From the NCBI GenBank assembly GCA_030613505.1, contig JAUWLW010000011.1:945-64944 (forward strand): 64,000 bases of DNA. The letters are read 5' to 3'. Each line of letters starts with the position of its first letter. Within the stretch, counting starts at the first letter, position 1. A model generated the notes under the pieces. It was given only the letters and a program-made list of their open reading frames with translations. It was not told where the DNA came from and searched no databases. The translations under genes and the position numbers were made by a program. This stretch comes from Candidatus Zixiibacteriota bacterium. Lineage in GTDB: Bacteria; RBG-13-66-14; B26-G2; WVWN01. Shown piece after piece: positions 2,441-64,000 of this stretch.

Positions 2441-2577
2441 TTTTCTTACCTCTCGCTATTGTGTAACCGCTTTTCGTACGATTCATCTTCCGCACTTCGG
2501 CTAAGTACTGGTTAAACGTTAGGATCACAACGCAGCTACGAGTAGGACCTTAGCCCAGTTAAGACCCGGCCGGCCAC

Positions 2578-2874
2578 TTACTCCAAAACTTTTTTCTTCC
2601 GCGGCCGGCCCCGTTTTCGCGGCAATTGTACGCCCCGCTCGATGGCCTTCTCGACATCACCTCGGCGGACGCGCCAACCGCCGCCCAGCCGAACCGCGCG
2701 AAGCCCGAACTTCCCAGTAGCCGCGAATAATTGGCACCATCGTGTTATCGTGCTAGGGTCGCGGACCAGGATACGCGCGACCTGAGCCACGGTATATAGC
2801 CTCTCGAAACTATTTTCGATCCGACCGTCTATCGCAGTCGATTTTTTATCGCCGGCCGCGTTTTCCTTAATCAT
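2578..2874 (-). CDS. AlpA/excisionase-like HTH DNA-binding protein
   Basis: 98 aa with YTVAQVARILVRDPSTITRWCQ...GGGWRVRRGDVEKAI, a MerR/AlpA-type HTH, plus a basic C-terminus. Divergent from the repressor and integrase genes. Confidence 0.5.
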   Translation of the reverse strand: MIKENAAGDKKSTAIDGRIENSFERLYTVAQVARILVRDPSTITRWCQLFAATGKFGLRAVRLGGGWRVRRGDVEKAIERGVQLPRKRGRPRKKKVLE

Positions 2875-3091: not shown

Positions 3092-3670
3092 ATGGAACTG
3101 CACGAATTACTAAAGGCGAAGATGGAAGAAAAAGGTGTATCAGTGCCGGAACTCGCTGAAAAAACCGGGGTCGCGCCACAAGCAATTTACAATATCATTA
3201 AAGGGAAAACGCGGAGGCCGCGGTTGAATACGTTGAGGAAGATCGCCGCCTTTTTCGGCATCCCGGTATCCGTCTTCCTAGTCGCAGGACGGGGCGGTGG
3301 TACACCGGAAAATGCTGCGGAATCCGTGGAGAGCGATCTCGAAACCATTTGGAGAAAACTCGAGGGGATAAAAGTATTGGAGGACCGGTTGGGAAAGTTA
3401 GAGGCGCTCCTCGACCGAGTGCTCAACCTGCAAGACCGAGGCGTAGACTACTGCTTGGAGTTACCAGGGGTCGAATACGACGGGCTCGCGATGGCGTTGC
3501 CGGAGGAGTGCCCTGAAACGGTCGACGCCGAAACAAGGAAAGTGCTGTCGGAAAAATTTATACGGGAAGGGATAGCCATCGTCAAGCTGAACGGTTTGGA
3601 CGAAAATCTCCTTAACGCGGTATTCCAGTTGTTGTGGCTAATCAACGAGGCGGAAAAAGGCGACGATTAG
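3092..3670 (+). CDS. XRE-family HTH transcriptional regulator (phage CI-like repressor)
   Basis: N-terminal LKAKMEEKGVSVPELAEKTGVAPQAIYNIIKGKTRRPRLNTLRKIAAFFGIPVSVF is an HTH_XRE signature. It sits immediately upstream of the integrase. Confidence 0.6.
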   Translation: MELHELLKAKMEEKGVSVPELAEKTGVAPQAIYNIIKGKTRRPRLNTLRKIAAFFGIPVSVFLVAGRGGGTPENAAESVESDLETIWRKLEGIKVLEDRLGKLEALLDRVLNLQDRGVDYCLELPGVEYDGLAMALPEECPETVDAETRKVLSEKFIREGIAIVKLNGLDENLLNAVFQLLWLINEAEKGDD

Positions 3671-3682
3671 GGTGTTGTCGAG

Positions 3683-4690
3683 ATGGCCCGGATATTTAAA
3701 ATAGGGAAAACTTACTACGTAGATATCGTCGTAAACGGCCGGCGTATACGGCGGTCGCTCGGGGTAAAAAATAAAGCCGCGGCCGAAGCCGCGCGCGGTC
3801 GCCTCGAACTAACGGTCGCTCAAGGTAAGTCCCCTTTCATCGACGGCGACATCCGGATGGAAGATCTTATCGACGTGTATCTCGCCTATTGCGAAGCGAG
3901 GAACACGACGAAGACGGTGTCTTTGAAACGGACCTACCTCGGCAGGTTCTTGGAATTCGCCGGTAACGTAGGAGTGAGGAGTATCAAACGCGCCGACGTC
4001 GAAAACTACCTTAGCCGCCGGGCTAAAAGCGGAGAGTATCCAGCCGTGAACCGCGAACTCACGACGTTGAAGCATTTCTTCAACTTCGGGATCCAGCGGG
4101 AAATCATCGAGAAGAACCCGGCCGTCGGCGTCAAGAAGCTCCCGGAGAAACGCCGGCCTATAAGGTTACTCTCTGAGCGAGAACTCGATGCTTACTTCGA
4201 CTACTGTCGTAAGAACGACCAGTTGCTGTATGACTTGTCGGTAATCGCATTTCATACTGGACTTAGGCGCGGAGATATATTAAAAATAAAGGGGGAAGAT
4301 GTAGACGCCGAACGGCGTATGCTTACGGTAGTCGTGTCGAAACGGCGCGGCGAGCTAACGTTGACGTTACCGTTGAACGACACGGTTCACGAGGTACTGG
4401 CCCGGCGTAGTAATGACAATGGAAACGATTACCTATTCCCTGGCCGAAACGTTGACCACATCGTCGACTTCAAACGCCGATTTGAACGGGCTAAAAAAGC
4501 GATAGGGGTCGACTTCAAATTCATGGAGTTCAGGCACAATTGCGCTACGGCGCTACTACAATCCGGCGTAGATATATACACGGTGAAAGAGATTTTAGGA
4601 CACACGAGCCTAACGACGACGGAGCGGTACCTTAAGCTCGTAGATGAGAGGAAACGCGCGGCTCTCAATAAACTTGACCGCAAAAGTTAG
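3683..4690 (+). CDS. tyrosine-type site-specific integrase
   Basis: 335 aa with HTGLRRGDIL..., FRHNCAT, LGHTSLTTTERYLKL (R-H-R-Y catalytic tetrad pattern). Adjacent to a tRNA. Confidence 0.85.
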   Translation: MARIFKIGKTYYVDIVVNGRRIRRSLGVKNKAAAEAARGRLELTVAQGKSPFIDGDIRMEDLIDVYLAYCEARNTTKTVSLKRTYLGRFLEFAGNVGVRSIKRADVENYLSRRAKSGEYPAVNRELTTLKHFFNFGIQREIIEKNPAVGVKKLPEKRRPIRLLSERELDAYFDYCRKNDQLLYDLSVIAFHTGLRRGDILKIKGEDVDAERRMLTVVVSKRRGELTLTLPLNDTVHEVLARRSNDNGNDYLFPGRNVDHIVDFKRRFERAKKAIGVDFKFMEFRHNCATALLQSGVDIYTVKEILGHTSLTTTERYLKLVDERKRAALNKLDRKS

Positions 4691-4926: not shown

Positions 4927-5562
4927 CTATTCTATCGCGAGCGACACCCCCACCGCAGCCGTGCCTCCCGCGGTGCCGTAGCCGCCGGCGAGGCGTACGT
5001 CGACGTTGCGCCAGACGCTGTAGCCGAGGGTACCGACGGCGGCTACCTCTCTATCCGGGAAGGCGACGGCGACGCCCGGGCCCAGGTGCAGCCGCCACGC
5101 CCGTACGACGTCCACGCCCGCGACGACGGCCGGGCCGTCAATACTCAGGCCGGCGCCGACGAAGGGTCTTAGCTCGAGCGCTACGGCCGGTTCGGGCTTG
5201 TGGTAGACGGTAACGCTGTGTGGCTGGCCTTCGGGAACCGCCACCTCGCCGCCGGGCAGGATGCCGAGCTCGACTTCCTCGCCGCCCTCGGTCTCAATCC
5301 TCACGACGCGCGAGCCCGCCGGCCAATCCTTCATGACGACGTCGGCCTCGCCAGGCCGGTGCAGCGGGTTGAGCCGCTGGAGCGCCGACGACGTTCGTTC
5401 CTCGTCGGCGACGCGCCAGCCGGGCGGCGGTTGGTCCGCAGCTCGAGCGGGCGCTCGAGCCGGCCCCTCCCCCCTCACGAACAACCACCTCACCGCCAGC
5501 GCGCCGATCACGACTACGACGGCAATTAACAGCGGGATGGTAAGCCGTTTTAACATCTTCAC
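4927..5562 (-). CDS. membrane-anchored hypothetical protein (N-terminal TM helix)
   Basis: MKMLKRLTIPLLIAVVVVIGALAV... is an N-terminal TM. Its start overlaps the amidase stop by 4 nt (operonic). Confidence 0.5.
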   Translation of the reverse strand: MKMLKRLTIPLLIAVVVVIGALAVRWLFVRGEGPARAPARAADQPPPGWRVADEERTSSALQRLNPLHRPGEADVVMKDWPAGSRVVRIETEGGEEVELGILPGGEVAVPEGQPHSVTVYHKPEPAVALELRPFVGAGLSIDGPAVVAGVDVVRAWRLHLGPGVAVAFPDREVAAVGTLGYSVWRNVDVRLAGGYGTAGGTAAVGVSLAIE

Positions 5563-6233
5563 GGGTAAGGCACCCCCTCGTCAGGTATAAGCGTCGGGTC
5601 GCCCCGCCAGATGACGTAGGTGGCGAACGCCGGCGGACTCGCCATGGCCTCCAGCGCGCGGAGGCGGTCCCAGTCGAAGAGAAGGCCCGGGTCCGTCTTG
5701 GAGTAGTGAAGGTTGCCGTGCGCCAGTAGGCCGCGGAAGCCGTCGAGCTCGTCGAGGCCGTACGCGTCGCCGCCGTGCTCGCGGCTGACGCGCGGGTCGC
5801 AGCCGAGCCAAGGGTCGGGCAGCGTTTGCAGGGGGACGTCGAAGCGCGCGAGGAGCAGCGGCAGGAGGAAGGCCAGCGCGCGGTACTGCGCCTCGGCGAA
5901 TTTGCGGGGCGGGCCGAGGTTGGAGATCTCAATGCCGACGGAGCGCTCGTTGGGCCGGAACGCGCGCCAGCGCCGCCACCGCCAGGTGTACGGCCTGCTC
6001 CACGTGATGCCGGCGTGAAAGGCGACGTTCTCCAGGCGGACGAGTTGATAGACGTCGCCTTCGGGGCATATGTAGAAGTGCGCCGACGGACAGGCGGGCC
6101 GGGGCGAGCGCGCGAGCCAATTCAGGTCGCCCGGGTGCGAGCCGGCGGTGTAATGCAGTACGACCCAATCTACGTTAAATTCGGCCGGCCGCGCGGCGAA
6201 CCCCCGCGCCGGCCGCCAATAGAGGCGCGGCAT
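5559..6233 (-). CDS. N-acetylmuramoyl-L-alanine amidase (amidase_2/PGRP fold; endolysin-like)
   Basis: VVLHYTAG, HFYI, AFHAG, SVGIEISN and HYSKTDPG motifs. Confidence 0.8.
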   Translation of the reverse strand: MPRLYWRPARGFAARPAEFNVDWVVLHYTAGSHPGDLNWLARSPRPACPSAHFYICPEGDVYQLVRLENVAFHAGITWSRPYTWRWRRWRAFRPNERSVGIEISNLGPPRKFAEAQYRALAFLLPLLLARFDVPLQTLPDPWLGCDPRVSREHGGDAYGLDELDGFRGLLAHGNLHYSKTDPGLLFDWDRLRALEAMASPPAFATYVIWRGDPTLIPDEGVPYP

Positions 6234-25746: not shown

Positions 25747-26829
25747 TTAACGCGTCGTTGTCCCTTTTCGCCGTTTAAGGAAACGGCGCGCGATTAGCGT
25801 AATTAAAAAAACGATTATTAAGGCAGTTACGCCAAAAACGCCATACCGTGCAACGTGGAAAATCCGACTAGGCTTAAAACAACTTATACGCTGATTATAG
25901 CGGTCCGAAATGAATACGGTCCCACCCGGGGCCACGGCGATACCCGGGCCGTAGACCGTACTACGGTTTTCTGGTAAACCGAAAGAGCCCAAGAACGAGC
26001 CGGCCGCGGTGAAATAATCGAAACGACGGCCAACCCCTACGCGAGGATTTTCGAAAATGTAGACCTTGCCGTCCGTGCCGACGGCGATACCGCGGGGCTT
26101 CTTATACCTACTGTACCTACACCCCTCGGGCCCCCACCTCCCTAGATATGAACCTTCGGGGGTAAAGTACTGTACGCCGCCGAAGTCGTAATCTAAAACG
26201 TAAACGGTACCGTCCGGCCCTACTGCTAAATATAACGCTAAACCAAATTCCCCTTCCCCGGTCCCGTACGGACCCCATTCGGCGAGTAGAGTACCGTTAA
26301 CGTCATAACGTTGTATACGCCGCCCCGTCGAAGCGTAGATATCGCCGTTGGGCCCAACAGCCAACGGTCCTACTTCAGCTTCCCACTCCGATATCAATCG
26401 GCCCCGCGGCGTGAATTCGTACACGCGGCTTGCGGAGTGGTCGGCGGCGAAAACGGCTCCACCGCGCGCGATAGCTAAGCCGAAATACCCGAAACGAAAC
26501 GGGGAAATCGGCATTTCCCATTCCCCGAGAAAAGACCCCGCACTCGAAAAGTATTGCACGTGACCCTCGGATGCGACGTATACGTCGCCCGTTGGCGCAA
26601 CGACTACCGGTATCGGCGGAGCGCCGGTCCAACAACCGAAATCCTCTACCGGCCATTCGCCCGCTTTAACGTAATCCGGCGGGTTGTTCACCTTTTTAAT
26701 AAAAGATACGATTTTACGAAAACGGCTTTCGTCAGGCGTTTCGTCGATACGAGCCGACGCCACTCCCAAGGAGCAAACGGCCACCGTTATTACTGCGAAA
26801 ATTACTTTTTTATAAGGAATTGAATACAT
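25747..26829 (-). CDS. NHL-repeat protein with N-terminal signal anchor and C-terminal TM + basic tail
   Basis: Start trimmed to MYSIPYKKVIFAVITVAVCSLGVASA. Ends ...VFGVTALIIVFLITLIARRFLKRRKGTTTR. Lower GC than the flanks. Confidence 0.65.
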   Translation of the reverse strand: MYSIPYKKVIFAVITVAVCSLGVASARIDETPDESRFRKIVSFIKKVNNPPDYVKAGEWPVEDFGCWTGAPPIPVVVAPTGDVYVASEGHVQYFSSAGSFLGEWEMPISPFRFGYFGLAIARGGAVFAADHSASRVYEFTPRGRLISEWEAEVGPLAVGPNGDIYASTGRRIQRYDVNGTLLAEWGPYGTGEGEFGLALYLAVGPDGTVYVLDYDFGGVQYFTPEGSYLGRWGPEGCRYSRYKKPRGIAVGTDGKVYIFENPRVGVGRRFDYFTAAGSFLGSFGLPENRSTVYGPGIAVAPGGTVFISDRYNQRISCFKPSRIFHVARYGVFGVTALIIVFLITLIARRFLKRRKGTTTR

Positions 26830-26946
26830 ACTTAACGTCCCAACATTGGGCCTATGAAAGGCTTCATGTCGCGGTCGAAATCGCATTCTTCCCCTTCACC
26901 GGGCCAAACGATGGCCCTAAAAGGGCGGCCACTTTCCGCTACGGCT

Positions 26947-28050
26947 TCATCCCATTCCTCCTGTTCGCCGCGTTTTAATTACCCGGCATATTATAAAGGA
27001 ACCTACCAAGCTCGCAACGAAAACGCCGGCAGCGACGATTACCCACACGTATACGCGTTTATTAACCGAACGCTTGAACGTACGCACTTTCAAATCCCTA
27101 CCGTCGGCAACGTAAACGTCGCCCGAAGGAGCCGCCGCTACCCCCCAGAAGAAATCGCCCCGGCGCGGCGGCGCGGTATACTCCAGCACGCCTTTTAACC
27201 GGCCGCGGCGGTCGAAGTATTCCACTTTATCCTTTGACATATCGGAAACGAATACCTCTCCCGCACGCGCAACGGCAACGGCGTTGGGGTATTTGAACTC
27301 GCTCGGGCCGGTGCCCTCTTCGCCCCACGCGCCGAGGAACGAACCGTCGGCGCTGAAATACTGCACGCGCTCGTTCAACGTGTCGGTAACGTATACCGCT
27401 TCCCCGTCCGGCGCTATTGCGATACTTTCGGGATAATGGAATTTACCCTCGGCTGCCCCGTACGAACCCCATTTACCCAAAAAGGAACCCGTACTCGAAA
27501 AATACTGAACCCTCTCGTTGAGGGTATCGGCGACGTAAACTCGGCCGGTCGAATCGACTGCCAAACCCGCCGGGCTGCCGAATTGCCCTTCGCCGGTCCC
27601 GCGACTACCCCAGCCGCCCAAGTAAACGCCGTCCGACGAGAAGTAAATCACCGCATCTCCGCACAGCGCGTAAACGTTGCCGTCGGGCCCGCCGGCAATA
27701 CCCCGCGGCACGAACGTATACCTCGCCAACCCTACCGTACCGGGCGGCGGCGGCGGGACAACGTACCATTCATCAAGGGAGTTCCCCGTCGCGTCGTAAC
27801 GGCGTATCCGCTGCGTTAACGGGTCGGCGACGTAGACATCGCCGTCCGGGCCTACGGCTATGGGGATCGGCGGCGCTAATATCATGCCACACCGGTGGAA
27901 ACCTTCAAGGTCCCACTCGCCGGCGTATTCGTACCAGGTCGCAGGACCCGGCTTCAAGCGTTCGATGATATCCCGTTTGCCGCTACTGCACCCGGAGAAA
28001 ATAATGAGGATAGATAAAAACGCGGAAAAAAAAACGAGGTTTTTACGCAC
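26947..28050 (-). CDS. NHL-repeat lipoprotein with C-terminal TM anchor
   Basis: MRKNLVFFSAFLSILIIFSGC lipobox. Ends ...VYVWVIVAAGVFVASLVGSFIICRVIKTRRTGGMG. Confidence 0.7.
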   Translation of the reverse strand: MRKNLVFFSAFLSILIIFSGCSSGKRDIIERLKPGPATWYEYAGEWDLEGFHRCGMILAPPIPIAVGPDGDVYVADPLTQRIRRYDATGNSLDEWYVVPPPPPGTVGLARYTFVPRGIAGGPDGNVYALCGDAVIYFSSDGVYLGGWGSRGTGEGQFGSPAGLAVDSTGRVYVADTLNERVQYFSSTGSFLGKWGSYGAAEGKFHYPESIAIAPDGEAVYVTDTLNERVQYFSADGSFLGAWGEEGTGPSEFKYPNAVAVARAGEVFVSDMSKDKVEYFDRRGRLKGVLEYTAPPRRGDFFWGVAAAPSGDVYVADGRDLKVRTFKRSVNKRVYVWVIVAAGVFVASLVGSFIICRVIKTRRTGGMG

Positions 28051-33691: not shown

Positions 33692-34612
33692 TTAGACGTC
33701 GCCGATTATCGCAAGGTACCACGGGCCGTAGCCGAAGCGGTACCGCTCGTACGTCTTGGTGACGTAGTTGTCGGTATGCTGGTCGGGCTCGAAGACGTTG
33801 ACCTCGAGGTCGATGCGCTTCTGGAATATGAACGGCCTTACGGGCTTGCCTAGGTCGAGGAAGTACCAGGCGGTGGCGCTGGAGATGTAGGGCGTCTGGA
33901 TGAGCGCCAGCTTCTCGTAGAACGGGTTGTAGCCGGCGTTGGCGGTGCCCGCGGCGCCCGGCGTGTTGATGAGCATCTCCCACGCGACGCCGGTGTCGCC
34001 GGCGCCGGTCACGATGTGGGTCGGCCGGACGTCAAGCGGGCTGCCCTTGGGGTCCGTGAAGGCGCGCATTACCTTGAGGACGTCGATGGCGTTTGAGAGT
34101 GACGTCGCCAGATCGGCGGTCCCCACGGCCTTGTTCTGGTCGTCGTTGGACTGGTTGGAGCTGCCGGCGTGGTCGGTGTCGAAGAAGTACTGGCCGTCGT
34201 GGCACGTGGCGGCGGTGCCGCCGGTGACGAGCGAGGCCCAGTTATCCTGGAGCTTGATCTGGTGGCCTATGGCGGCGCTCTGGAACTTCTGGCGGATGTA
34301 GTTGTGCCGGTCGTCCTCCACCATCTTGCGGTGGATGTCGATGGCCAGGCCGTAGGTGTAGTTGGTTAAGGAGTAGCTCTCGTCGTCTAGGCCGTAGTGG
34401 ATGCGGGCGTCCTCGTCGATGCGCCCCGGGACCGGCAAGCGGCCGCCGAAGCCGTAGTACTCTGTTTCGCCGTCGCTCGACGTCACCATAACGGCGTCCT
34501 TCCAGGAGGCGTCCTGGTAGTACGAGTCCTCGTAGATGCGGAAGAACTCCTCCTTGCACGCCACCTCCAGGACCCGGGCGAAGTCGCTCGGCGAAAGGTT
34601 AGGTCCTGCCAT
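33692..34612 (-). CDS. phage major capsid protein (Mu gpT-like size and position)
   Basis: 306 aa, directly after the protease/scaffold and a small gene. No signal peptide. Confidence 0.55.
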   Translation of the reverse strand: MAGPNLSPSDFARVLEVACKEEFFRIYEDSYYQDASWKDAVMVTSSDGETEYYGFGGRLPVPGRIDEDARIHYGLDDESYSLTNYTYGLAIDIHRKMVEDDRHNYIRQKFQSAAIGHQIKLQDNWASLVTGGTAATCHDGQYFFDTDHAGSSNQSNDDQNKAVGTADLATSLSNAIDVLKVMRAFTDPKGSPLDVRPTHIVTGAGDTGVAWEMLINTPGAAGTANAGYNPFYEKLALIQTPYISSATAWYFLDLGKPVRPFIFQKRIDLEVNVFEPDQHTDNYVTKTYERYRFGYGPWYLAIIGDV

Positions 34613-41405: not shown

Positions 41406-42338
41406 TTACTTATCTTCCGGCGCGACGCGGCGGAAATATTGGACGCGGCCGTTACCTTTATCAACGACGTATAACAACCCGCTAGCGGAAAACGCCAAAC
41501 TACATGGTGCGTAGAACTCGCCGGCGTTATAACCCTCTACCCCCCACGTACCTAAAAAAGAACCATTGGGCGTAAAATATTGAATGCGATGATTAAGCTC
41601 ATCAGCAACGTATACGTTACCGTCGGGGCCTACCGTAATACCAGTAGGGAAATCGAATTGCCCGACACCAACCCCGTGAGAACCCCACATACCCAAAAAA
41701 GAACCCGAACGATTAAAATATTGCACGCGATGGTTTTCCGAGTCGGTAACGAAGATTTCGCCGCCCGAACCAGCCGCGATATCTCCGGGGTCCCTAAAAC
41801 AACCCTCACCGCCACCCTTCGAACCCCATTCCCCTAAAACCGAACCGGTGGAATTGAAATGTTTAATACGGTTTTCCAGGCGGTCGGCTACGTAAACGTC
41901 GCCGTTAGCGGCCACACCCAAAGCGCTAGGAAAAGAAAAAGGACCTCCGACGGTTACAAAGGACCCCCACTCGTATACGAAATCGCCATCCCGCGTAAAC
42001 CGCTGGACCTTCCCGAGCTCGGTTTGGAGAATGTAAATATCGCCGTTGGGGGCTACCTCCACCGCTTCCGGGAAATCAAACTCCCCCTCGCCCTCGGCGA
42101 AATTACCCCACGTACTTATTACCGACCCGGAAGGCGTATATTTGGCGAGACGTTGCATGCTTAAATCAATTACGTATACGTTTCCTTCAACGCCGACGGC
42201 AACACGGCCGGGAAGTGAAAAATTCATTGCCCCGTCCAAGGTACGCCACTCGCCCGCATATTCGTATTCGTTACCGATAAAAGGCCTACCGAATGCGAGC
42301 GACAAAAGGATAAATACCATTAAAAATCGAACCCGCAT
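41406..42338 (-). CDS. secreted NHL-repeat protein (...YFRRVAPEDK)
   Basis: Near-duplicate of 37795..38727. Confidence 0.8.
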   Translation of the reverse strand: MRVRFLMVFILLSLAFGRPFIGNEYEYAGEWRTLDGAMNFSLPGRVAVGVEGNVYVIDLSMQRLAKYTPSGSVISTWGNFAEGEGEFDFPEAVEVAPNGDIYILQTELGKVQRFTRDGDFVYEWGSFVTVGGPFSFPSALGVAANGDVYVADRLENRIKHFNSTGSVLGEWGSKGGGEGCFRDPGDIAAGSGGEIFVTDSENHRVQYFNRSGSFLGMWGSHGVGVGQFDFPTGITVGPDGNVYVADELNHRIQYFTPNGSFLGTWGVEGYNAGEFYAPCSLAFSASGLLYVVDKGNGRVQYFRRVAPEDK

Positions 42339-42451
42339 ATTCTACATCCCGTGGACGTCGTTAAATATCTTATTGTCTTATTATAGCTATTGAAAGCGGA
42401 AACGTAAAGCCCTTACGTAATCGTGGTAAATGGATTAGAATATTTAAACGC

Positions 42452-43150
42452 TTAAGGGCGGGCGGGCCCGAAAGGCCAAGGACAAGTATACCGGACATTA
42501 ACGTACCAATGGGGCGGGTCGCCCGGCAAGTCGGAAAATCCCTCCACGTCGTTGAGACCTATACTTTTTAAGACAGCTGGGTCCATCGGCGGGTCGAATT
42601 GGTTAGCGAAAAAAGTTTTAGCTTCCGGCCTAGTAACAACGTCAACGGCGCAACCGTTCCAATGGCCGAACGCGTCCCCGGCGTCCCGGACGCCGTAAGG
42701 GTCGTCTTCGGGGTAACCGTTAAGTATTGTCTTACCCAAGCGACGATAACCCGACGTTAGGTAGATAACCGGCTTCCTTTCGGCGCGTTGGCCTTTGGGG
42801 CGAGGGAATAACTTCTTGTGCTCCTCCCACGCTGCGTCGCGCCACTCGCGCAGCTTCTCGATTAACTCCGGACGCGCCAACATACATCGGTCGGCGTGGT
42901 CTGTCGTAGCGACGGTGGTCGGAATGGGAACTAGGATATTCTTCTCGATGTCGTCGACGACGGCCTGTAAATCCTCCCACGAACTTACGCCCGGTTGGTG
43001 CTTTTTAAAACTCGCAATCAAATCCCTTATCGCAGTCCGTTCTTCCGAGTCGTCGGAATACGCGTACGACGCCAACGTTCGGAAGCGGCACGAGTTCAAC
43101 CCCCGAACCAAGGAATATCGGGCCAAAGGTCCCATAGGATCGGTAGCCAT
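42452..43150 (-). CDS. peptidase M15-family zinc peptidase (duplicate)
   Basis: SGYRRLGK...FGHWNGCAVDVV...PPHWYV. Confidence 0.55.
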   Translation of the reverse strand: MATDPMGPLARYSLVRGLNSCRFRTLASYAYSDDSEERTAIRDLIASFKKHQPGVSSWEDLQAVVDDIEKNILVPIPTTVATTDHADRCMLARPELIEKLREWRDAAWEEHKKLFPRPKGQRAERKPVIYLTSGYRRLGKTILNGYPEDDPYGVRDAGDAFGHWNGCAVDVVTRPEAKTFFANQFDPPMDPAVLKSIGLNDVEGFSDLPGDPPHWYVNVRYTCPWPFGPARP

Positions 43151-43158
43151 TTTCCCCC

Positions 43159-43620
43159 TTAGTCGTCGTCTTCGCCGAACGGGAATCCCGGACCCGGATG
43201 TTTATTCAAGCCGAAACTGCTGAAGGCGCTCTTTCCCAGATCGAAGTTCCCCACCGTCGGCGTAGGGATGTTCCTCGACACAGTTAAAGAGAGTTTAAGC
43301 TGACCGCGAAGGACGTCGCCTTTGAACACTTCCCACTCGTGCCAGTACGTCGAGGCCGCCGTCCGCCCCTCGCCGGTCCAGCCCTGTTCGCCGTAGGCGG
43401 AGTTGATGCAGTGGTAGAGCGTCAGCGCCAGGCAGATGCGCCACACGTACTTGTCGGCGCCCGGGTCGGTCAGCGCGTAGCGGTCGCGCAGGACCGCCTC
43501 TATCTCCGCCTCCGCGCGGTCGCGGTTGGCGGTAACGCGCGCGTCCGCGCACAGGTCGCTCGTCAGCAGCGGGTACTCCGTCCGAACGTCGCTCACGTTA
43601 ACGGGAGTCGTCCATGACAT
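43159..43620 (-). CDS. connector-like protein (152-aa family)
   Basis: MSWTTPVNVSDVRTEYPLL.... Its start is 6 nt after the portal stop. Confidence 0.45.
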   Translation of the reverse strand: MSWTTPVNVSDVRTEYPLLTSDLCADARVTANRDRAEAEIEAVLRDRYALTDPGADKYVWRICLALTLYHCINSAYGEQGWTGEGRTAASTYWHEWEVFKGDVLRGQLKLSLTVSRNIPTPTVGNFDLGKSAFSSFGLNKHPGPGFPFGEDDD

Positions 43621-43626: not shown

Positions 43627-44925
43627 TCACCTTCCTGGTTGCGCCCCGACGGTTTCCGCCACATCCCCCTCGCCCTTGGGCATGGGCTCTTCCTCGGCGG
43701 CGGCGGGGCCGGCGGTCGGGGGGGGCGAGGCCGGCGTCTCTTCCGGCATCTTGAGGCCCATCTGCGCCACCTTGTCGCGGCAGGCTTCGATGGTGCGGCG
43801 GTCGGCGTTGGCCGAGAGGATGCCGCGGCACAGCTCGAGTATGAACTCGCGCTTGTCGTCGGAGAGTGGCTCGGCCTCGAGGTAGCACGTCGGCGGTTTT
43901 TGGAAGTTGTACTGGACCAGCTTCTTGACGTTGTGCTCGTTCTCGGCGCGCAGGACGTCGCCGGCGATGCCGTCGGTGGTCTTGGTGAAGAACTTGGAGT
44001 GGACCTCGGCCTGCTTGTACGCGCCCACCTCGCCCTGCGTCACGACGCGGTCCGGGATGCGGAGCGCGCGGAACATCTCGACGTTGAAGTAGTCGAGCTT
44101 CCCTACCCAGTGGCTGCCGTCGCCGGCGGGCGGGACAACGTCGACGTCCCACAGCGGGTTGCGGCCGTCGTCGAAGACCTGGGGCAGCGTGACGTAGGAG
44201 TTGTCGCGCACGTCGCGGCCCAGCGTCTGCGCCGCGCCGCGGTTGGTTACGTCGTCGCCGGTGTCGGGCGGATACTTCACCTTGACGAAGGGGGTGCCGA
44301 AGCGCTCGGCCTCGCGCAGCATGAACAACGTCAGCATCTCGTGGTTGTACCAGGCGCGGTAGCAGGACTTGGTGGCCGGGATGCCGTAGAGGTTGCCGAA
44401 CTCGTCGTCGTGGGCGTACCAGGCCGACTTGTCGGCGGGGACGTTTATGATGTCGCCGGCGAGCTGCTGGAATCCGTTGTAGGAGCCGTGCTCGTCGGCC
44501 AACCAGCGGCAGTTCTCGGGGTGCGGGTCGCGCAACTCGCGGAAGACCCACCTGGGCGCGCCGTGGTAGTCCACCGAGGTCCAGACGTGCTCGAGCGGCG
44601 CGTAACCGAAGTCGAGGGCGTTGAGGCACATTTTAGTGAAGCGGTCGCTCCACGGCTCCAGGTACTGCGACTCGACGAAGCGGCGCACGTCGGCGTCGTC
44701 GCACACCACGCGCTTCTCCGCCGCCAGCACCGCCATTTTGATGACGGCCAGGCCGAAGTGAATTTGCGGGTACTCGCGCATCCGCTTGAGCGAGGAGAAC
44801 GATATCGACGAGGGGTTGTAGACGCCCAGCTCGGCGATGAGCCGCGCGGCGTACTGGTAATAAAAACGGGTCAGCGACGCCTGATACGCCGCCGGGGTTT
44901 TTTTGCGGTCTTTATTCTGCGCCAT
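43627..44925 (-). CDS. phage portal protein (putative)
   Basis: 432 aa, overlaps the TerL stop by 14 nt. Acidic/Pro-rich C-terminus. Position is canonical. Confidence 0.55.
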   Translation of the reverse strand: MAQNKDRKKTPAAYQASLTRFYYQYAARLIAELGVYNPSSISFSSLKRMREYPQIHFGLAVIKMAVLAAEKRVVCDDADVRRFVESQYLEPWSDRFTKMCLNALDFGYAPLEHVWTSVDYHGAPRWVFRELRDPHPENCRWLADEHGSYNGFQQLAGDIINVPADKSAWYAHDDEFGNLYGIPATKSCYRAWYNHEMLTLFMLREAERFGTPFVKVKYPPDTGDDVTNRGAAQTLGRDVRDNSYVTLPQVFDDGRNPLWDVDVVPPAGDGSHWVGKLDYFNVEMFRALRIPDRVVTQGEVGAYKQAEVHSKFFTKTTDGIAGDVLRAENEHNVKKLVQYNFQKPPTCYLEAEPLSDDKREFILELCRGILSANADRRTIEACRDKVAQMGLKMPEETPASPPPTAGPAAAEEEPMPKGEGDVAETVGAQPGR

Positions 44926-46216
44926 AGTCTAAACCTCTGCTTTGGTATACCCGGCCGCCGTCGGCGGTCGGTAGGGCGCTCGAGCTCCCGCGCCCCAATC
45001 CCCAACAGGCCAGCGCCAGCGCGGTCACGGCGTCGTCGTGGTAGCCGGCCGGCGCGCCGTAGCGGACGCCCCCTCCCGGGAGCTGCTCGGCGGCGTAGAT
45101 CTCGAGCTCGCTCAGTAGCGCCGGCACGTCCGGGAAGCGAACGGTTCGCTCCGCCAGCGCCAGCGCCAGATTCTCCACCAGGCGGCGCTTGGTCTCGGCG
45201 GTGAACTTGTAGCCGCGCGCCGGGACGCCCAGCGACTTCAAGCGGTCGTAGACCGGGTCGCCTAGGCCGGTGCTGTCGAGCCACACCGTCGCGTCGTGGT
45301 AGCGGCTCGAGGCGCTGCGGACCTTCGCCACCTGGAACTCCCAGTCGAGCTGGTTGAAGCGCTCGAAGTGGACCAGCGCCCGGCTCGAGCGCTTGAGCAC
45401 GCACATCACGGTGAAGTCGGTCGTCTTGGCGAGGTCGCAGCCGACGACGTAGGTCTCGTCCGGCTGCGGCTCCTCCAGGTCGCCGGCGACGCACTCGCGG
45501 ATGTCGTGGAAGACGCCGCCCAGGTCGCCCAGGAACTCGGCCAGAATTTCCTGGCGGTAGACGTTCTCGGGTAGGCTGCGGGCCTCGGCGTCGATGCTGG
45601 CCGCGGGGAGGATGCCGTCGTAACTGGTGAAGTGGAAGCCGACGTAGCCCGGTTCCGCGGCGGCGGCTCGCGCCCACAGCTCGTGCGCCTGGTTGAGGCC
45701 CTTGGGCGTGAAGATGAAGAGGGCGGGCGCGTCGCGGGCCATAAGGGTAGGGCGGACGCACTCCTCCCAGGCGTAGCGGCTCCAGAGGCTGAACTCCTCG
45801 GCCACCAGGCCGGCGACGGAGAGCGGCCGGACAGCGTCCGGGTTGTCCATCGAGCGCAGGATTATTTTGGCGTCGTTGGCCAGCGTCAATACGTGCTCCG
45901 TCTTGTTGTAGGCGTCGCCCCAGCCGCCGCCCCGGAGGGCTTCGGCCGGGATGGCGCGGATCATTTCGGGGACGAGCTGGTCGCGCAGGTAAGCGTACTC
46001 GGGCGCGGCGACGAGAACGTACGCGCCGGGTTGGGCGTCGCAGGCCCAGTCGCGGGCGACGCGCACGGCGGCGAAGGTCTTGCCGAACTTGCGGCCGGCG
46101 CGCACGACGACGCGCCTGTGTTTATCGAGAACGCACGCGCGGTAGACGGCATATTGCTTAGGATTTCGCCTTAGCGTTGCGTCCCTTATTCTTATGCGAG
46201 TTTTCGGGAGGCACAA
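44912..46216 (-). CDS. terminase large subunit
   Basis: Walker A-like VRAGRKFGKT. Nuclease-region acidic motifs VGCDLAKTTDF and HDD. Confidence 0.75.
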   Translation of the reverse strand: MCLPKTRIRIRDATLRRNPKQYAVYRACVLDKHRRVVVRAGRKFGKTFAAVRVARDWACDAQPGAYVLVAAPEYAYLRDQLVPEMIRAIPAEALRGGGWGDAYNKTEHVLTLANDAKIILRSMDNPDAVRPLSVAGLVAEEFSLWSRYAWEECVRPTLMARDAPALFIFTPKGLNQAHELWARAAAAEPGYVGFHFTSYDGILPAASIDAEARSLPENVYRQEILAEFLGDLGGVFHDIRECVAGDLEEPQPDETYVVGCDLAKTTDFTVMCVLKRSSRALVHFERFNQLDWEFQVAKVRSASSRYHDATVWLDSTGLGDPVYDRLKSLGVPARGYKFTAETKRRLVENLALALAERTVRFPDVPALLSELEIYAAEQLPGGGVRYGAPAGYHDDAVTALALACWGLGRGSSSALPTADGGRVYQSRGLDYGAE

Positions 46217-48561: not shown

Positions 48562-48622
48562 GGTTCAACCTCCAATTTCAAATACCTTTTGCGCCGGTCG
48601 GTAACAACCGGCGCCGCGGCGG

Positions 48623-49573
48623 TTACCGGAACAGCGCCTTCACCTTCCCCAGCGACGTGGGGGAGATGGCGGGGTTTTCCCATTTGAAATATTGTACCCG
48701 GTGGTGAGAATCAGCTATGTAAACGCGCTTGCCACTTGTCGGGAAAGCCACGTCCTCAGGGAAAACGAATTCCCCGTAAAATAAACCCAGGAAAGAACCT
48801 GTGGGCGTGAAATATTGGATACGACTATGGCCCATATCGGCGACGTAAACGTCGCCTTGGGCCGTAACGGCAACGCCACGAGGCATTAAGAATTGCCCGG
48901 CGCCATGCCCGGGAGACCCCCACATACCGATAAAAGACCCGTTAGCCGTGAAGTATTGTACGCGTTCGTTATCGATGTCTACGACGTAAACGTTGCCGCT
49001 GGGGGCCACCGCCAAGCCCCACAGACGGTTAAATTCGGCGGGGCCGGAGCCGGGGCTGCCCCACTTACCGAGGTACGAACCGGCGGAGGTGAAGTATTGG
49101 ACGCGGTCATTACCCCAATCGGCGACGTAAACGTTACCGCTCGAGGCGACGGCCACGCCGACGGGGAGGACAAATTGGCCGTTACCGGGGCCCAACGAAC
49201 CCCATTTGCCTAAAAAAGAACCCTCCGACGTGAAGTACTGAACGCGGTTATTGAAACGGTCGGCGACGTAAACGTCGCCGTTGTCGGCTACGGCTATGTG
49301 CATGGTTATCGTAAATTCGCCGTCGGCCGTACCGAGGCTACCCCACATACCTAAAAACGAACCCGTAGGCGTGAAATATTGAATGCGATGGTTGCCGTGG
49401 TCGGTCACGTATACGTTACCGCTGGGGGCTACCGCCAACCCGTAAATGTGTATGAACTCCCCTTTCCCGGAACCGTACGAACCCCACTGGCCCTCGAACA
49501 CCCACTCGCCCCAGGCGCAAAAGGCCGCCAACGCATACAGCGCCGCGGCCGTCATTATCGTCAGCTTCCTCAT
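48623..49573 (-). CDS. secreted NHL-repeat protein with C-terminal tag ...NPAISPTSLGKVKALFR
   Basis: Signal peptide MRKLTIMTAAALYALAAFCAWG. NHL repeats. Tag. Confidence 0.85.
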   Translation of the reverse strand: MRKLTIMTAAALYALAAFCAWGEWVFEGQWGSYGSGKGEFIHIYGLAVAPSGNVYVTDHGNHRIQYFTPTGSFLGMWGSLGTADGEFTITMHIAVADNGDVYVADRFNNRVQYFTSEGSFLGKWGSLGPGNGQFVLPVGVAVASSGNVYVADWGNDRVQYFTSAGSYLGKWGSPGSGPAEFNRLWGLAVAPSGNVYVVDIDNERVQYFTANGSFIGMWGSPGHGAGQFLMPRGVAVTAQGDVYVADMGHSRIQYFTPTGSFLGLFYGEFVFPEDVAFPTSGKRVYIADSHHRVQYFKWENPAISPTSLGKVKALFR

Positions 49574-49696: not shown

Positions 49697-50659
49697 TTAT
49701 CTAAACAGCGCCTTCACGCGGCCGAGGGAGGCCGGCTCCACCGCGGGGTCGGAGGGGCGGAAGTACTGGATGCGGTCGTTATGGGTATCGGCCACGTAAA
49801 TTCTATCGCCCGCGGCGTTGGAAGCGATGCCCTCCGGTTCGTCGAATTGGCCGCGGCCCGTGCCGTACGTACCCCACTTGCCCAGGAAGGAGCCCGTAGC
49901 GGTGAAGTATTGGACGCGGTCGTTTTTGTTGTCGGTCACGAAAACGTGGTTACCGGCCGAGACGGCCACGCCGTACGGGTCGTCGAACCGGCCGTTGGCC
50001 GTGCCGTGCGAACCCCATTTGCCGAGGAACGAGCCCGTCGCCGTGAAGCGCTGGACGCGGTTGTTGTCGCCGTCGGCGACGTAGACGTTGCCGTTGGCCG
50101 CCACCGCTACGCCGACGGGGCCGTCGAACCGGCCGTTGGCCGTGCCGTGCTCGCCCCACTTGCCCAGGTAGGAGCCGGCGGAGTTGAAGTATTGGACGCG
50201 GTCGTTACCCCAATCGGCGACGTAAACGTTACCGCTCGAGGCGACGGCCACGCCGACGGGGAGGTAAAATTGGCCATTGCCGGGGCCCAACGAGCCCCAC
50301 TTGCCGAGGAACGAGCCGGTCGGCGTAAAATACTGCACCCGTTCGTTCATCCGGTCCGTTACGTAAACGTTGCCGTTCGGGCCCAGGGCTATGCCGGCGG
50401 GGAATTGGAACTGGCCGTCGCCGGAACCCGACGAGCCCCACTTCCCGTTGAAGGAACCGGTCGGGGTGAAATATTGGATCCGGTGGTTCCACTCGTCGGC
50501 TACGTAAACGTTGCCGCCCGGCGCCACGGCGACGCCGTCGGGCTGGTTGAACCGACCGTTGCCCGTTCCGGGCAATCCCCACTTGCCCGCGTAGACCCAG
50601 TCCGTGGCGGCGGCGGCCGCCGCGAGCGCCGCGGCCGTGATTATCGCGAGTTTCCTAAT
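49697..50659 (-). CDS. secreted NHL-repeat protein with tag ...DPAVEPASLGRVKALFR; canonical ATG replaced by ATT
   Basis: In-frame upstream extension IRKLAIITAAALAAAAAATDWVYAGKWG matches the signal peptides of paralogs. SD GGAGGT is intact. A TAA lies 2 codons upstream. The ORF track starts at TTG (50575). Confidence 0.55.
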   Translation of the reverse strand: MRKLAIITAAALAAAAAATDWVYAGKWGLPGTGNGRFNQPDGVAVAPGGNVYVADEWNHRIQYFTPTGSFNGKWGSSGSGDGQFQFPAGIALGPNGNVYVTDRMNERVQYFTPTGSFLGKWGSLGPGNGQFYLPVGVAVASSGNVYVADWGNDRVQYFNSAGSYLGKWGEHGTANGRFDGPVGVAVAANGNVYVADGDNNRVQRFTATGSFLGKWGSHGTANGRFDDPYGVAVSAGNHVFVTDNKNDRVQYFTATGSFLGKWGTYGTGRGQFDEPEGIASNAAGDRIYVADTHNDRIQYFRPSDPAVEPASLGRVKALFR

Positions 50660-50740
50660 TACCTGTTACCTCCTCGAGCTACCGCCCTCTGCGCATAAAT
50701 ATAATATAAAAACCTCGACGGCCACAAATAAAAACGGGCC

Positions 50741-50768
50741 GACCTTAAGGCCGGCGCGTACGTATATC
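50741..50768 (-). terminator. rho-independent terminator (GCCGGCC-UUAA-GGUCGGC + U5)
   Basis: Same terminator family as 49641 and 55062. Confidence 0.5.
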
Positions 50769-50826
50769 GCGGGGACAAGGGGCCGTTAACCGGCGGTTTT
50801 AACCGCCGGGTTGCCCCCTGTCCGAG

Positions 50827-50846
50827 CGGCCTTAGGGGCGCACAGC
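50827..50846. repeat. palindrome family member GGGCGCACAGCCGTGCGCCC
   Basis: Perfect 8+4+8 palindrome. Confidence 0.55.
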
Positions 50847-50902
50847 CGTGCGCCCTTACAAAAACTTTCCGCGTTTTCCGGTAACAACCGGCGCCACAGC
50901 GG

Positions 50903-50947
50903 TTACCGGAACAGCGCCCGGATACGGCCCGGCGAGGCGGCGACCCG
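50903..50947 (-). other. orphan, degenerate tag-coding remnant (...VAASPGRIRALFR*), out of frame with 50976..51986
   Basis: Reverse translation in the +1 frame relative to the NHL gene gives the tag. The NHL gene instead ends ...CGGCGGVLY*. Confidence 0.55.
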
Positions 50948-50975
50948 AATATAAACGCGCGTGAAGGCCACGCCC

Positions 50976-51986
50976 TCAGTATAGCACGCCGCCGCAGCCT
51001 CCGCACCCGTCGCGCGGCGTCCCGCCGCAAACAGGCGGCACCGGGATGGCGAAAAACTGGACCCGGTGGTTGCCGGAATCGACTACGTAAAGCAGTCCCT
51101 CGTACCGGGAGGCCGCGAGGCCGCGGGGGTGGTTGAACTCGCCGTCCCCGGCTCCCCGCCGGCCCCACGCGCCGACGAAATCGCCCGCGGAAGTGAACTC
51201 TTGAACCCGGCCGTTGCCCTTGTCGGCAACCAGTACGCCGTACCCGTCGCCCGTAACCGCTACCCCCTCCGGGAACCGAAACTCGCCGTGGGCCGAACCC
51301 TCCGAACCCCACGACGCAACGAAAGAACCGGCGGCGGTAAAACTCAGGACGCGGTGGCGTCCCCCGGCGCCGCCACCCTCGGTTACGTAAACCAGGTCGT
51401 CGCGCGGCGAGAGGGCGATGCCCAACGGGTAACCGAGGCGACCTTCGCCCTCGCCGGACCATTTTCCCAGGAAAACGCCGTCCGGGCCGAAACGTTGGAC
51501 GCGGCGGTTGAGAGTATCGACGACGTAGATCTCGCCGGAGAGGGGGTGGACGGCTACGCCGGTCGGGTACCGGAACTGGCCGTCGCCCTTCCCCTCCGAC
51601 CCGATCTGACCCAGAAACGAACCGGTGGAGGTGAAAATTTGGAGGCGGTGGTTGTACTTATCGGTGACGTACGTCGTCCCGTCCCAGGCCACGGCGACGC
51701 CGTGCGGCTCGCGGAACTGGCCGGGGCCGCCGCCCTCCGACCCCCACTTGCCGAGGAAGGAACCGCGCGAGGTGAAGTACTGGATCCGGTGGTTCAAGGT
51801 GTCGGCCACGTATACGTAGTGACGGTAAACGGCCACGCCGACGGGCGACAGGAATTGGCCGTCGCCCTTCCCCTCCGAACCCCACTGCCCCTTGTATTCG
51901 TAACGTCCGGGATCGCCGCGGGGCGTCGTCACCGTCGCGAGGACGAAAAGCAACGCCGCAGCAACTAAACGCCATAATGTTTTCAT
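50976..51986 (-). CDS. secreted NHL-repeat protein whose C-terminus has lost the tag (possible frameshifted or degraded end)
   Basis: Signal peptide MKTLWRLVAAALLFVLATVTTP. NHL repeats. Atypical Cys/Gly-rich C-terminus. A tag remnant lies 30-75 nt downstream. Confidence 0.65.
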   Translation of the reverse strand: MKTLWRLVAAALLFVLATVTTPRGDPGRYEYKGQWGSEGKGDGQFLSPVGVAVYRHYVYVADTLNHRIQYFTSRGSFLGKWGSEGGGPGQFREPHGVAVAWDGTTYVTDKYNHRLQIFTSTGSFLGQIGSEGKGDGQFRYPTGVAVHPLSGEIYVVDTLNRRVQRFGPDGVFLGKWSGEGEGRLGYPLGIALSPRDDLVYVTEGGGAGGRHRVLSFTAAGSFVASWGSEGSAHGEFRFPEGVAVTGDGYGVLVADKGNGRVQEFTSAGDFVGAWGRRGAGDGEFNHPRGLAASRYEGLLYVVDSGNHRVQFFAIPVPPVCGGTPRDGCGGCGGVLY

Positions 51987-51997
51987 CTTAACCCTCC

Positions 51998-52036
51998 TAC
52001 CGGGACAGCGCCCTCACGCGGCCCAGCGGAGGTACC
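51998..52036 (-). other. orphan tag-coding remnant (GKVPPLGRVRALSR*) between the T9SS-CTD gene and the next NHL gene
   Basis: +1 frame relative to the upstream gene. It ends at a TAG that directly abuts the SD of 50976..51986. Confidence 0.5.
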
Positions 52037-59533: not shown

Positions 59534-59555
59534 GGGGCGTACAGCTGTACGCCCC
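59534..59555. repeat. palindrome family member GGGGCGTACAGCTGTACGCCCC
   Basis: Identical to the copies at 57254 and 63961. Confidence 0.6.
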
Positions 59556-59611
59556 TACCGGAACAACGCCTTCACGCGGCCGAGGGAGGTGGGCGCAACG
59601 CCGGGCCTTCT
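59555..59611 (-). other. orphan tag-coding remnant (...RRPGVAPTSLGRVKALFR*) without an NHL body
   Basis: Out of frame and downstream of the membrane-protein stop at 59629. The ORF-track 59555..59968 ORF is otherwise Arg-rich junk. Confidence 0.55.
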
Positions 59612-59628
59612 CGCGTTGCGCGCCGATC

Positions 59629-60117
59629 TCAACATCCTGATAATTGGCTCAACCATATCAGTAAACCGCAAATTAATCCCACCGCGCCGCTGGTTCCGCC
59701 GAGGACGACGGTCCATTTTACCGCGCGCCAACCGGGGTATTCGTAGAGTAGCTCGCCCCGGGCGGCGGCCCCGGCGCTCGCGAAGGCGCCGTAAACGAGA
59801 AGTCCTATCCAAACGACGCCCCCCAACGTACCGCCGAAGAGGATTATTATGAAGATGACTTGCCCGAACCCTTCGGCGGCGTCGAGTCGCCCGAATATCG
59901 TCGCCACCGCGGCCCAACCTGCGACCACATAGTAGAAGGCGAGCGTCGTCGCCGCCACGGCGAGCCAAAGCTCGAGGGCGCGAAAGAGATGGTGCCGGAC
60001 GAAGGTATTAACGAAAGCTGCGGGGATCGCGAGGGGTAGCGCAACCAGGAAATACGAGCCGGCGGCTACTGACCGCGCGGCCTTATTCGATTCGACGACG
60101 TCGCGAGGCGAAGACAT
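59629..60117 (-). CDS. polytopic membrane protein, hypothetical
   Basis: Start trimmed to MSSPRDVV.... Four or more hydrophobic helices. The upstream 160 aa of the ORF-track ORF are Arg-rich GC artefact. Confidence 0.5.
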   Translation of the reverse strand: MSSPRDVVESNKAARSVAAGSYFLVALPLAIPAAFVNTFVRHHLFRALELWLAVAATTLAFYYVVAGWAAVATIFGRLDAAEGFGQVIFIIILFGGTLGGVVWIGLLVYGAFASAGAAARGELLYEYPGWRAVKWTVVLGGTSGAVGLICGLLIWLSQLSGC

Positions 60118-63960: not shown

Positions 63961-63982
63961 GGGCGTACAGCTGTACGCCCCT
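63961..63982. repeat. palindrome family member GGGGCGTACAGCTGTACGCCCC
   Basis: Third identical copy. Confidence 0.6.
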
Positions 63983-64000
63983 ACCGGAATAACGCCTTCA
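63982..64000 (-). CDS. C-terminal end (...KALFR*) of another tag-bearing gene running off the right edge
   Basis: Reverse translation gives ...(V)KALFR-stop, immediately followed by palindrome + spacer + terminator exactly as in the other cassettes. Confidence 0.5.

Follow-up and report, generated by a model that had tools for sequence, protein, structure and literature searches.

An out-of-frame tag relic behind an NHL propeller gene, probably the stump of a neighbouring paralogue

How does a gene in a cluster of C-terminally tagged paralogues come to end without the tag, with a degraded copy of that tag lying out of frame behind its stop codon? The question is raised by gene 50976..51986, which encodes a secreted six-bladed NHL beta-propeller on the minus strand of a 64,000-nucleotide (nt) stretch from Candidatus Zixiibacteriota bacterium (assembly GCA_030613505.1, contig JAUWLW010000011.1, positions 945 to 64,944), referred to here in its full length as the window. 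A first-pass annotation of this DNA had proposed either that a frameshift or indel detached the tag, leaving an incipient pseudogene, or that a 3' cassette was acquired by recombination without restoration of the frame. As set out below, we consider it likely, though by some way not certain, that the relic is what remains of the 3' end of a tagged NHL paralogue resembling the neighbouring gene 48623..49573 (hereafter gene 48623), a stump joined out of frame to gene 50976..51986 by deletion or illegitimate recombination.

The gene end and the relic behind it

Eight long open reading frames (ORFs) of the window end in frame with the motif ..AVxP[TA]SLG[RK]V[KR]A[LIV][FY][RK] directly followed by a stop codon. 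Gene 50976..51986 instead ends ...FFAIPVPPVCGGTPRDGCGGCGGVLY, with CGGCGGVLY as its last residues. All six blades of its product align with the paralogues, and the last blade is complete (...GNHRVQFF), followed by the tail AIPVPPVCGGTPRDGCGGCGGVLY. In the +1 frame the DNA 3' of the gene reads ...EGVAFTRVYIRVAASPGRIRALFR up to a stop codon at 50905..50903. To score such sequences, a 42-nt log-odds matrix was built from the eight in-frame tags and run over the whole window. Intact tags score 44-54 bits, an orphan tag at 59555 scores 53.2 bits, the relic at 50944..50903 scores 31.0 bits, a second relic at 51997 scores 23.6 bits and no non-tag site of the window exceeds 5.8 bits; over 30 simulated windows the maximum was 16.8 bits. 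As the relic also aligns to the paralogue tags in register and without gaps, the atypical gene end and the degraded +1-frame tag 30-75 nt downstream, both described in the first-pass annotation, are real.

The relic reads V-A-A-S-P-G-R-I-R-A-L-F-R-stop. Here the near-invariant Pro at position -12 has been replaced by Ala, and the Leu of S-L-G by Pro (S-P-G), at a position held by Leu, Val, Met, Phe or Ile in functional tags; the G-R-x-R-A-L-F-R-stop part is retained. The relic is not a functional tag of gene 50976..51986: it stands in the +1 frame relative to the gene with a TGA between the two, and both the Pro and the hydrophobic residue before the Gly are lost. Neither is it opened as a separate ORF by any start codon that is conserved in the diverged orthologous locus introduced below (contig L001).

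Homology to the paralogue 3' ends reaches past the tag, 5' to 50979 and 3' to about 50879, which identifies the relic as that of a tagged NHL paralogue. On the 5' side and in the frame of the relic tag, the segment 50979..50949 matches the last blade of gene 48623 (CTGAGGACGTGGCTTTCCCGACAAGTGGCAAGCGCGTTTACAT) at 27 of 31 positions with one 12-nt gap, and the alignment score of 33.25 compares with 12.9 ± 2.3 for shuffled sequences (p ≤ 0.001). The TGA that terminates gene 50976..51986 (50978..50976) is in fact part of this blade fragment, in which it forms the out-of-frame cCTGAGg. On the 3' side, the relic's stop codon and the following 3' untranslated region (UTR) likewise correspond to those of gene 48623 (Table 1). 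Since blade piece, tag and 3' UTR all match gene 48623, the relic is best read as a stump of about 100 nt of a 48623-like paralogue that carries internal deletions. Of the two origins proposed in the first-pass annotation, the joining of a 3' cassette by recombination without frame restoration thus comes near to the evidence.

Alignment to the paralogues, which had been proposed as a way to locate the frame break, does so. In the five tagged NHL paralogues exactly 24 nt (8 codons) separate the Phe codon of (V/I)QYF from the P[TA]S of the tag. Measured in the same way, the distance in gene 50976..51986 is 109 nt, a net 85 nt (3n+1) more than in the paralogues, and a single-base change therefore cannot restore the frame. 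The first ~70 of the 109 nt are without a source and the next 31 nt come from the 48623-like last blade. With this spacing and some 70 unassignable nt, the proposal of a frameshift or small indel is not borne out.

The tail-coding sequence (51050..50980) occurs once in the window. It shows no significant similarity to the tags, the relic or any of eleven NHL genes, the tail has no match in Pfam or NCBIfam, and an exact scan of viral contigs for the tail pattern gave no match. A diverged tandem copy of the tag and an out-of-frame piece of an NHL gene were both considered as its source and rejected, local alignments being no better than those of shuffles. Selenocysteine read-through of the UGA was likewise discarded, as the frame-0 extension yields neither a tag nor a conserved peptide.

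Taken together, the following course of events may be envisaged. A deletion or illegitimate recombination would have joined NHL gene 50976..51986 to the stump out of frame, so that after ...HRVQFF the gene would read through ~70 nt of unassignable sequence and end at a TGA that arises where the Pro-Glu codons of the stump are read out of frame. Joined out of frame and behind this TGA, the tag would be left untranslated and hence decay neutrally. The order of these events, deletion as the form of the join and the role of the tag discussed below are inferred.

Alternatively, the relic could be the gene's own tag, displaced by a stop-bearing insertion of ~85 nt into the 24-nt linker. The excess of 3n+1 would fit the +1 frame, the relic starts only 31 nt past the stop codon, the gene is part of the tagged cluster and shares with its tagged neighbours the presence of a signal peptide, and the inserted stretch would contain a small hairpin and a T-rich tract right after the TGA. 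We nevertheless consider this origin unlikely: the 31 nt preceding the relic tag resemble the last blade of gene 48623 (PE[GD]VAF...RVYI) rather than a linker, gene 50976..51986 already possesses a complete last blade (VQFF), the UTR behind the relic is that of gene 48623, and no source of an insert was found.

A sequencing or assembly indel that broke an in-frame tag also has to be weighed, given the homopolymer and the GC-rich repeats (T5, GCGGCGG) near the junction. The exact protein is encoded on contigs of two ENA and two Logan assemblies derived from different runs, and the DNA over 51100..50560 (or to the contig end) is identical in these four assemblies except for one base at 50657 in one contig. 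Moreover, an orthologue with 94% identity (P0001, on the Joint Genome Institute (JGI) metagenome contig L001) agrees in length, in the ...CGGCGGVLY end, in the TGA and in having the out-of-frame relic, there in the form VAASPGRVRALFR before the stop codon. The break is thus present in four independent assemblies and a diverged orthologue, and no sequencing indel that would restore an in-frame tag is seen at the assembly level. As the excess moreover amounts to 85 nt and not to 1-2 nt, we regard the probability of an artefact as negligible.

Selection on the gene and retention of the relic

For the analysis of selection the window was compared with the one diverged orthologous locus, L001; the two lineages share ~95% nucleotide identity. 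Within the propeller body (codons 1-312) 37 differences are found, 17 of them synonymous, corresponding to a synonymous divergence (dS) of 0.081, a non-synonymous divergence (dN) of 0.027 and dN/dS = 0.33. The excess of synonymous changes is significant in a binomial test against 27% synonymous (p = 0.01), and the propeller body is under purifying selection. In the 24-codon tail all four differences are non-synonymous (dN = 0.082, close to dS), and between the stop codons of gene and relic 5 differences in 76 nt correspond to about the neutral rate as given by the body dS. With nine substitutions in all, these values are consistent with neutral drift of tail and relic. The three differences that fall into the relic tag all place the window copy (31.0 bits) further from the consensus than the L001 copy (41.5 bits); either the window relic is decaying, or the L001 copy has been patched by recombination.

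Gene 50976..51986 is accordingly no pseudogene: its 336-codon ORF is intact, its length is conserved in L001 and its body evolves at dN/dS = 0.33. Together with an arrangement that is fixed in two lineages, this speaks against the incipient pseudogene suggested earlier; that the tag copy is degraded, untranslated in the annotated frame and the product of a rearrangement is upheld. In short, the feature is an ordinary recombination scar, neither a sequencing error nor a dying gene. For annotation, the product is best described as a complete NHL propeller that lacks the tag and has a short, unconserved tail; it is probably a secreted NHL protein without the tag that its neighbours carry for sorting or anchoring.

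Several observations weigh against a 48623-like stump. The blade fragment covers just 31 nt, and its match reaches significance with gene 48623 only, not with the four other paralogues; the ~70-nt tail has no identifiable origin, and neither the exact junction nor the type of event can be reconstructed. L001 is moreover the only diverged orthologue, scans of genome and metagenome contigs for orthologous loci having yielded nothing above 49% identity, and no ancestral, unrearranged locus was seen. Finally, read in the +1 frame, the stretch between codon 313 and the relic stop shows dN/dS = 0.33 (5 synonymous and 4 non-synonymous changes), as a translated frame would. This value rests on nine changes and is not significant (own estimate p ~ 0.1), and three of the nine are explained by the L001 copy being nearer to the tag consensus.

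The selection signal in the +1 frame raises the possibility that the tag is still used, i.e. that a tagged isoform is made in minor amount, next to the major untagged one, by a programmed +1 frameshift between codon 312 (T5 run, CAG UUU UUC) and the UGA. If this were true, a single gene would encode both a propeller that is secreted in free form and a tagged one with another localisation. The +1 frame is indeed open from 51085 to the relic stop (61 codons), its dN/dS equals that of the gene body while none of the four changes in the annotated tail is synonymous, and a U5 run that is unique to gene 50976..51986 and conserved in L001 lies at codons 311-312, where the frames would switch. At the +1 site of prfB, the gene for release factor 2 (RF2), the slip codon re-pairs at a poor stop codon, and a Shine-Dalgarno-like stimulator is located a few nt upstream. 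Our locus shares with prfB an in-frame UGA that is followed by an open +1 frame encoding a recognisable peptide. Unlike prfB, it has no CUU-U-type slip codon and lacks a Shine-Dalgarno sequence within the short distance needed, and its +1 product would end in a degenerate tag; conservation was judged from two lineages. In GUG CUA UAC UGA G, the step from UAC to ACU does not permit re-pairing, and the only GGAGG, which would have to stand ~3 nt from a slip codon, lies ~19 nt upstream of the UGA. The site thus matches none of the known slippery or stimulatory arrangements for +1 shifts, Rfam gave no match, and the evolutionary signal amounts to the nine substitutions mentioned above. The product, lacking the Pro and having Pro in place of the hydrophobic residue, would probably be nonfunctional if made, and the window copy is leaving the consensus. 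Continued use of the tag hence appears highly improbable.

A further explanation for the persistence of the relic could lie at the level of RNA. The 3' UTR 50990..50725 folds with z = -3.4, no shuffled sequence folding as well, and one of its predicted hairpins takes in the relic's stop codon (CCGGUAAC...GUUACCGG). The last codons and the stop of the relic could thus be kept because they supply the 5' arm of a hairpin by which the NHL transcript is terminated or stabilised. Gene 48623 is followed by the same hairpin-forming sequence, and palindromes of the family described below adjoin stop codons elsewhere in the window. In L001, however, the 3' arm is altered (GTTGGCGG for GTTACCGG); the hairpin is therefore not conserved, and we give little weight to selection at the RNA level. 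Since the relic also diverges near the neutral rate, and since a role in RNA would explain its retention and not its origin, we regard this explanation as very unlikely.

Table 1. Features of the relic locus and related elements in the window (window coordinates).
Feature	Position	Strand	Remarks
NHL six-bladed beta-propeller gene	50976..51986	-	336 codons + TGA; N-terminal signal peptide (MKTLWRLVAAALLFVLATVTTP...)
Atypical tail, codons 313-336 (AIPVPPVCGGTPRDGCGGCGGVLY)	50979..51050	-	origin unassignable; evolving at about the neutral rate
Relic part 1: putative last-NHL-blade fragment of a 48623-like paralogue	50949..50979	-	in the frame of the relic tag; TEGVAFT-RVYI vs PEDVAFPTSGKRVYI
Relic part 2: degraded C-terminal tag (VAASPGRIRALFR, then stop)	50903..50944	-	+1 frame; 31-75 nt beyond the gene's stop; 31.0 bits
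Stop codon + 3' UTR stretch (taaccgcYgYggcgccggttgttacc)	50879..50905	-	92.6% over 27 nt to 48625..48599
Stop-adjacent palindrome member (GGGCGCAC GGCT GTGCGCCC)	50836..50855	-	47 nt after the relic; predicted hairpin
Long imperfect hairpin (GGACAGGGGGC...CCGGCGGTT AAAA CCGCCGG...GCCCCTTGTCC)	50773..50823	-	intergenic
Intrinsic-terminator-like hairpin + T-run	50729..50755	-	ahead of the NHL gene that follows, 49697..50575
Intact in-frame tag of gene 48623..49573 + the same 27-nt 3' UTR	48597..48664	-	cupin gene next
Second relic tag (VPPLGRVRALSR, then stop)	51997..52035	-	directly after the stop of the FG-GAP gene with a type IX secretion C-terminal domain (52037..~53974), 10 nt before the ATG at 51986; 23.6 bits
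Third orphan tag (VAPTSLGRVKALFR, then stop), undegraded	59555..59596	-	after an unrelated membrane-protein ORF; 53.2 bits; then palindrome + terminator
Tagged NHL genes in the same cluster	48623, 49697, 54051, 57275, 58252	-	
Tagged non-NHL secreted proteins	10844 (+), 22776 (+), 56377 (-)		
Palindrome copies, 20 nt each	47836, 50836, 54031, 57255, 59535, 63843, 63961		

The C-terminal tag and known sorting signals

The tag family from which the relic derives can be described by a motif of ~14-17 residues, ..AVxP[TA]S[LVMF]G[RK][VI][KR]A[LIM][FY][RK]-COOH, which also occurs on the contigs L013 and L046 and in the proteins P0369-P0456; the source labels of tagged proteins include Candidatus Coatesbacteria and Zixibacteria (Zixiibacteriota). 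It is strictly C-terminal, each motif occurrence in ~0.6 Mb of fetched loci directly preceding a stop codon, and modular, being found on signal-peptide proteins that comprise NHL propellers, a 255-residue family without Pfam matches and other secreted proteins. In the 255-residue family 87 of 88 homologues end in the tag, S-[LVMFIAW]-G is present in 87/88 and the Pro is near-invariant. The bodies of distant members of this family are 38% identical, compared to 74% for the last 12 residues, and in-frame copies of the tag differ mostly at synonymous positions. On these two grounds we rejected the idea that the tag is a repeat maintained at the DNA level.

For the tagged paralogue 48623..49573, AlphaFold2 gives a model with a mean predicted local distance difference test score (pLDDT) of 90.8, with values above 90 for the propeller (residues 23-299) and below 50 for the tag (residues 303-316). 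Eight other NHL genes of the window carry no tag. Six of them end 4-7 residues past the YF of the last blade (..YFRRNNP, ..YFRP[VA]A[AP]DDK in three genes, ..YFRRVAPEDK and ..YFKPVVKWDEQ), and the remaining two have a C-terminal membrane helix instead. That the tag represents the closing strand of the propeller was hence rejected, as it is unstructured in the model, as untagged paralogues end shortly after the YF and as the tag is also found on non-NHL proteins. With an unstructured tag and untagged NHL genes being common, loss of the tag should leave a folded, secreted propeller and affect only the function that the tag mediates; judged by the model, the tag is dispensable for the fold. The two NHL proteins with a C-terminal hydrophobic helix, encoded by 25747..26886 and 26947..28050 on the minus strand, continue into a basic tail (..VFLITLIARRFLKRRKGTTTR and ..VFVASLVGSFIICRVIKTRRTGGMG, each followed by the stop) and represent a third type of C-terminus on the same fold.

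Neither the tagged proteins nor their isolated tails showed a match of the tag in Pfam or NCBIfam, and literature searches with literal strings and keywords returned no description of it. When a tag profile was run against 1.84 billion representatives, the top 150 matches were all long NHL-repeat proteins matched at positions 1-59; the upstream columns of the profile resemble an NHL blade, and these top 150 matches are therefore uninformative about the distribution of the tag. A 42-residue tail profile run against 5.8 billion proteins returned only fragments of 29-74 residues, and thereby exposed orphan-tag ORFs.

With respect to known systems, the tag resembles the C-terminal domain (CTD) of the type IX secretion system (T9SS; TIGR04183 / PF18962) as well as sortase, exosortase, rhombosortase and myxosortase signals in that it is C-terminal, sits on unrelated secreted passengers and is more conserved than these. 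Among homologues, the anchor on one and the same passenger varies: besides the tag it can be a transmembrane helix, a CTD of the FlgD/T9SS-like kind or, in ScyF-like NHL proteins, PEP-CTERM, and other extensions also stand in this place on NHL homologues elsewhere. Unlike the T9SS CTD with its ~70-80 residues, the tag comprises only ~14-17 residues and matches no hidden Markov model. It is no T9SS type A CTD, for which the neighbouring FG-GAP protein does give matches (33.7 and 34.5 bits), so that the models evidently work in this genome. CTERM signals are tripartite in the outline given by their published description, consisting of a signature motif, a hydrophobic transmembrane helix and a basic cluster. 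The tag, unlike these, has neither a transmembrane helix nor a basic tail cluster, and the relic is attached to no protein at all; ending 10 residues past S-L-G and without a hydrophobic stretch, the tag belongs to none of LPXTG, PEP-CTERM, GlyGly-CTERM and MYXO-CTERM. We infer that the tag could be a signal for sorting or anchoring, possibly an undescribed one, that is recognised by a conserved partner. The cluster offers a natural contrast between tagged and untagged propellers, which could help to find the role of the ...PxSLGRVKALFR-COOH tag.

Tag-bounded rearrangements, orphan tags and surroundings

Relative to L001 the window contains two extra segments, each of which is bounded by copies of the tag. 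The first comprises 2.28 kb between 50903 and 48623 and consists of the structured intergenic region and the NHL genes 49697 and 48623. It closes with the intact tag of gene 48623 and the same 27 nt, thus forming a direct repeat with a left copy at 50879..50905 and a right copy at 48597..48664. In L001 the cupin genes come right behind the relic and its 27-nt UTR. At this junction L001 shows no differences over 45 nt that are relic-like on the 5' side and differs from mid-tag on; just past the stop it reads CCGCCGCGG, like the UTR of gene 48623. A pattern that is relic-like on the 5' side and 48623-like after the stop is what one would expect for a crossover within the tag.

The second segment comprises ~2 kb between 54051 and 51997 and contains the FG-GAP/T9SS gene. 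In L001 the place upstream of the orthologue's ribosome-binding site is taken by an NHL gene whose tag is intact and in frame, this tag occupying the position of the second relic of the window. Here the window has the FG-GAP/T9SS-CTD gene followed by that relic, 37 nt in length, with the intact tag of gene 54051 located ~2 kb further upstream.

Orphan or truncated tags are also found in unrelated contigs. One of these, L102, has a perfect VAPASLGRVKALFR at 2540..2600 in the spacer after a SEC-C-motif (secA-like) gene, its stop being mutated from TGA to TGC, and another, L103, has a 47-codon stump at 1114..1257 that comprises last blade and tag with no gene upstream. For the undegraded orphan tag of the window, an ATG overlapping the stop of the membrane-protein ORF would give a 26-residue peptide, MLRSARNARRPGVAPTSLGRVKALFR, without a signal peptide (59555..59640). 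At the window edge, a tag end ..KALFR (tgaaggcgttattccggtag) at 63981..64000 on the minus strand is cut off, and is followed by a palindrome (63961..63980) and a GGGGCCCCTGCGGCCCC-T5 terminator.

Given the other orphan tags and the tag-bounded differences to L001, the relics are thus understood as recurrent by-products of 3'-end cassette turnover. This suggests that the tag together with its 3' UTR serves as a recombination joint for the gain, loss and replacement of secreted-protein cassettes in the array. Orphan C-terminal modules displaced downstream of rhs and cdiA genes are known as remnants in tandem paralogue arrays. As in these cases, we find a short untranslated 3' piece of a paralogue directly behind an intact gene, shared sequence that marks the cassette joints, and neutral decay. 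Unlike in rhs and cdiA arrays, the recombination-prone part is the extreme 3' end (tag and 3' UTR) and not an internal core, and the fragment has neither a functional module nor an immunity gene; no evidence for any re-use of orphan fragments emerged. A gene remnant in a recombining paralogue array is hence of a well-known kind, and the tag family and the recombination joint are the more notable part of the observation.

Further structured elements surround the relic. As described in the first-pass annotation, a member of a palindrome family follows the relic, although at 50836..50855 and not at 50827..50846. The family, GGGCGYRCRGCYGYRCGCCC, has 7 matches in the 64-kb window compared to 0.05 expected by chance. 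A TAG or TAA triplet directly precedes all seven copies and extends the palindrome (TAGGGGCG...CGCCCCTA); these triplets are three tag stops, the stop of the window-edge tag, the stop of a cupin gene and two without an assigned ORF. As GC-rich palindromes of 20 nt, of which most stand right after stop codons, they look like 3'-end hairpins of the repetitive extragenic palindromic (REP) type; Rfam gave no match. These palindromes flank the relic rather than explain it. An element similar to the terminator-like hairpin that precedes gene 49697..50575 is found after gene 49697 as well. The two independent Logan contigs L004 and L005 both stop exactly 188 nt past the stop of gene 50976..51986, near 50788 and inside the long hairpin, which suggests that this repeat-rich intergenic region breaks assemblies.

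Finally, phage-like genes are found in the window between ~3000 and 46300. They include a helix-turn-helix regulator and an integrase (3092..4690), an amidase (5559..6233), a Mu-like major head protein gpT (33692..34612), a Mu-like portal protein (43627..44925) and a terminase (44912..46216). The untagged NHL genes 6868, 25747, 26947, 31239, 36850, 37795, 41406 and 46842 lie among these genes, and four of them end ..YFR[PR].A..DK. The gene blocks 36850-41211 and 41406-43620 appear to be duplicates of each other.

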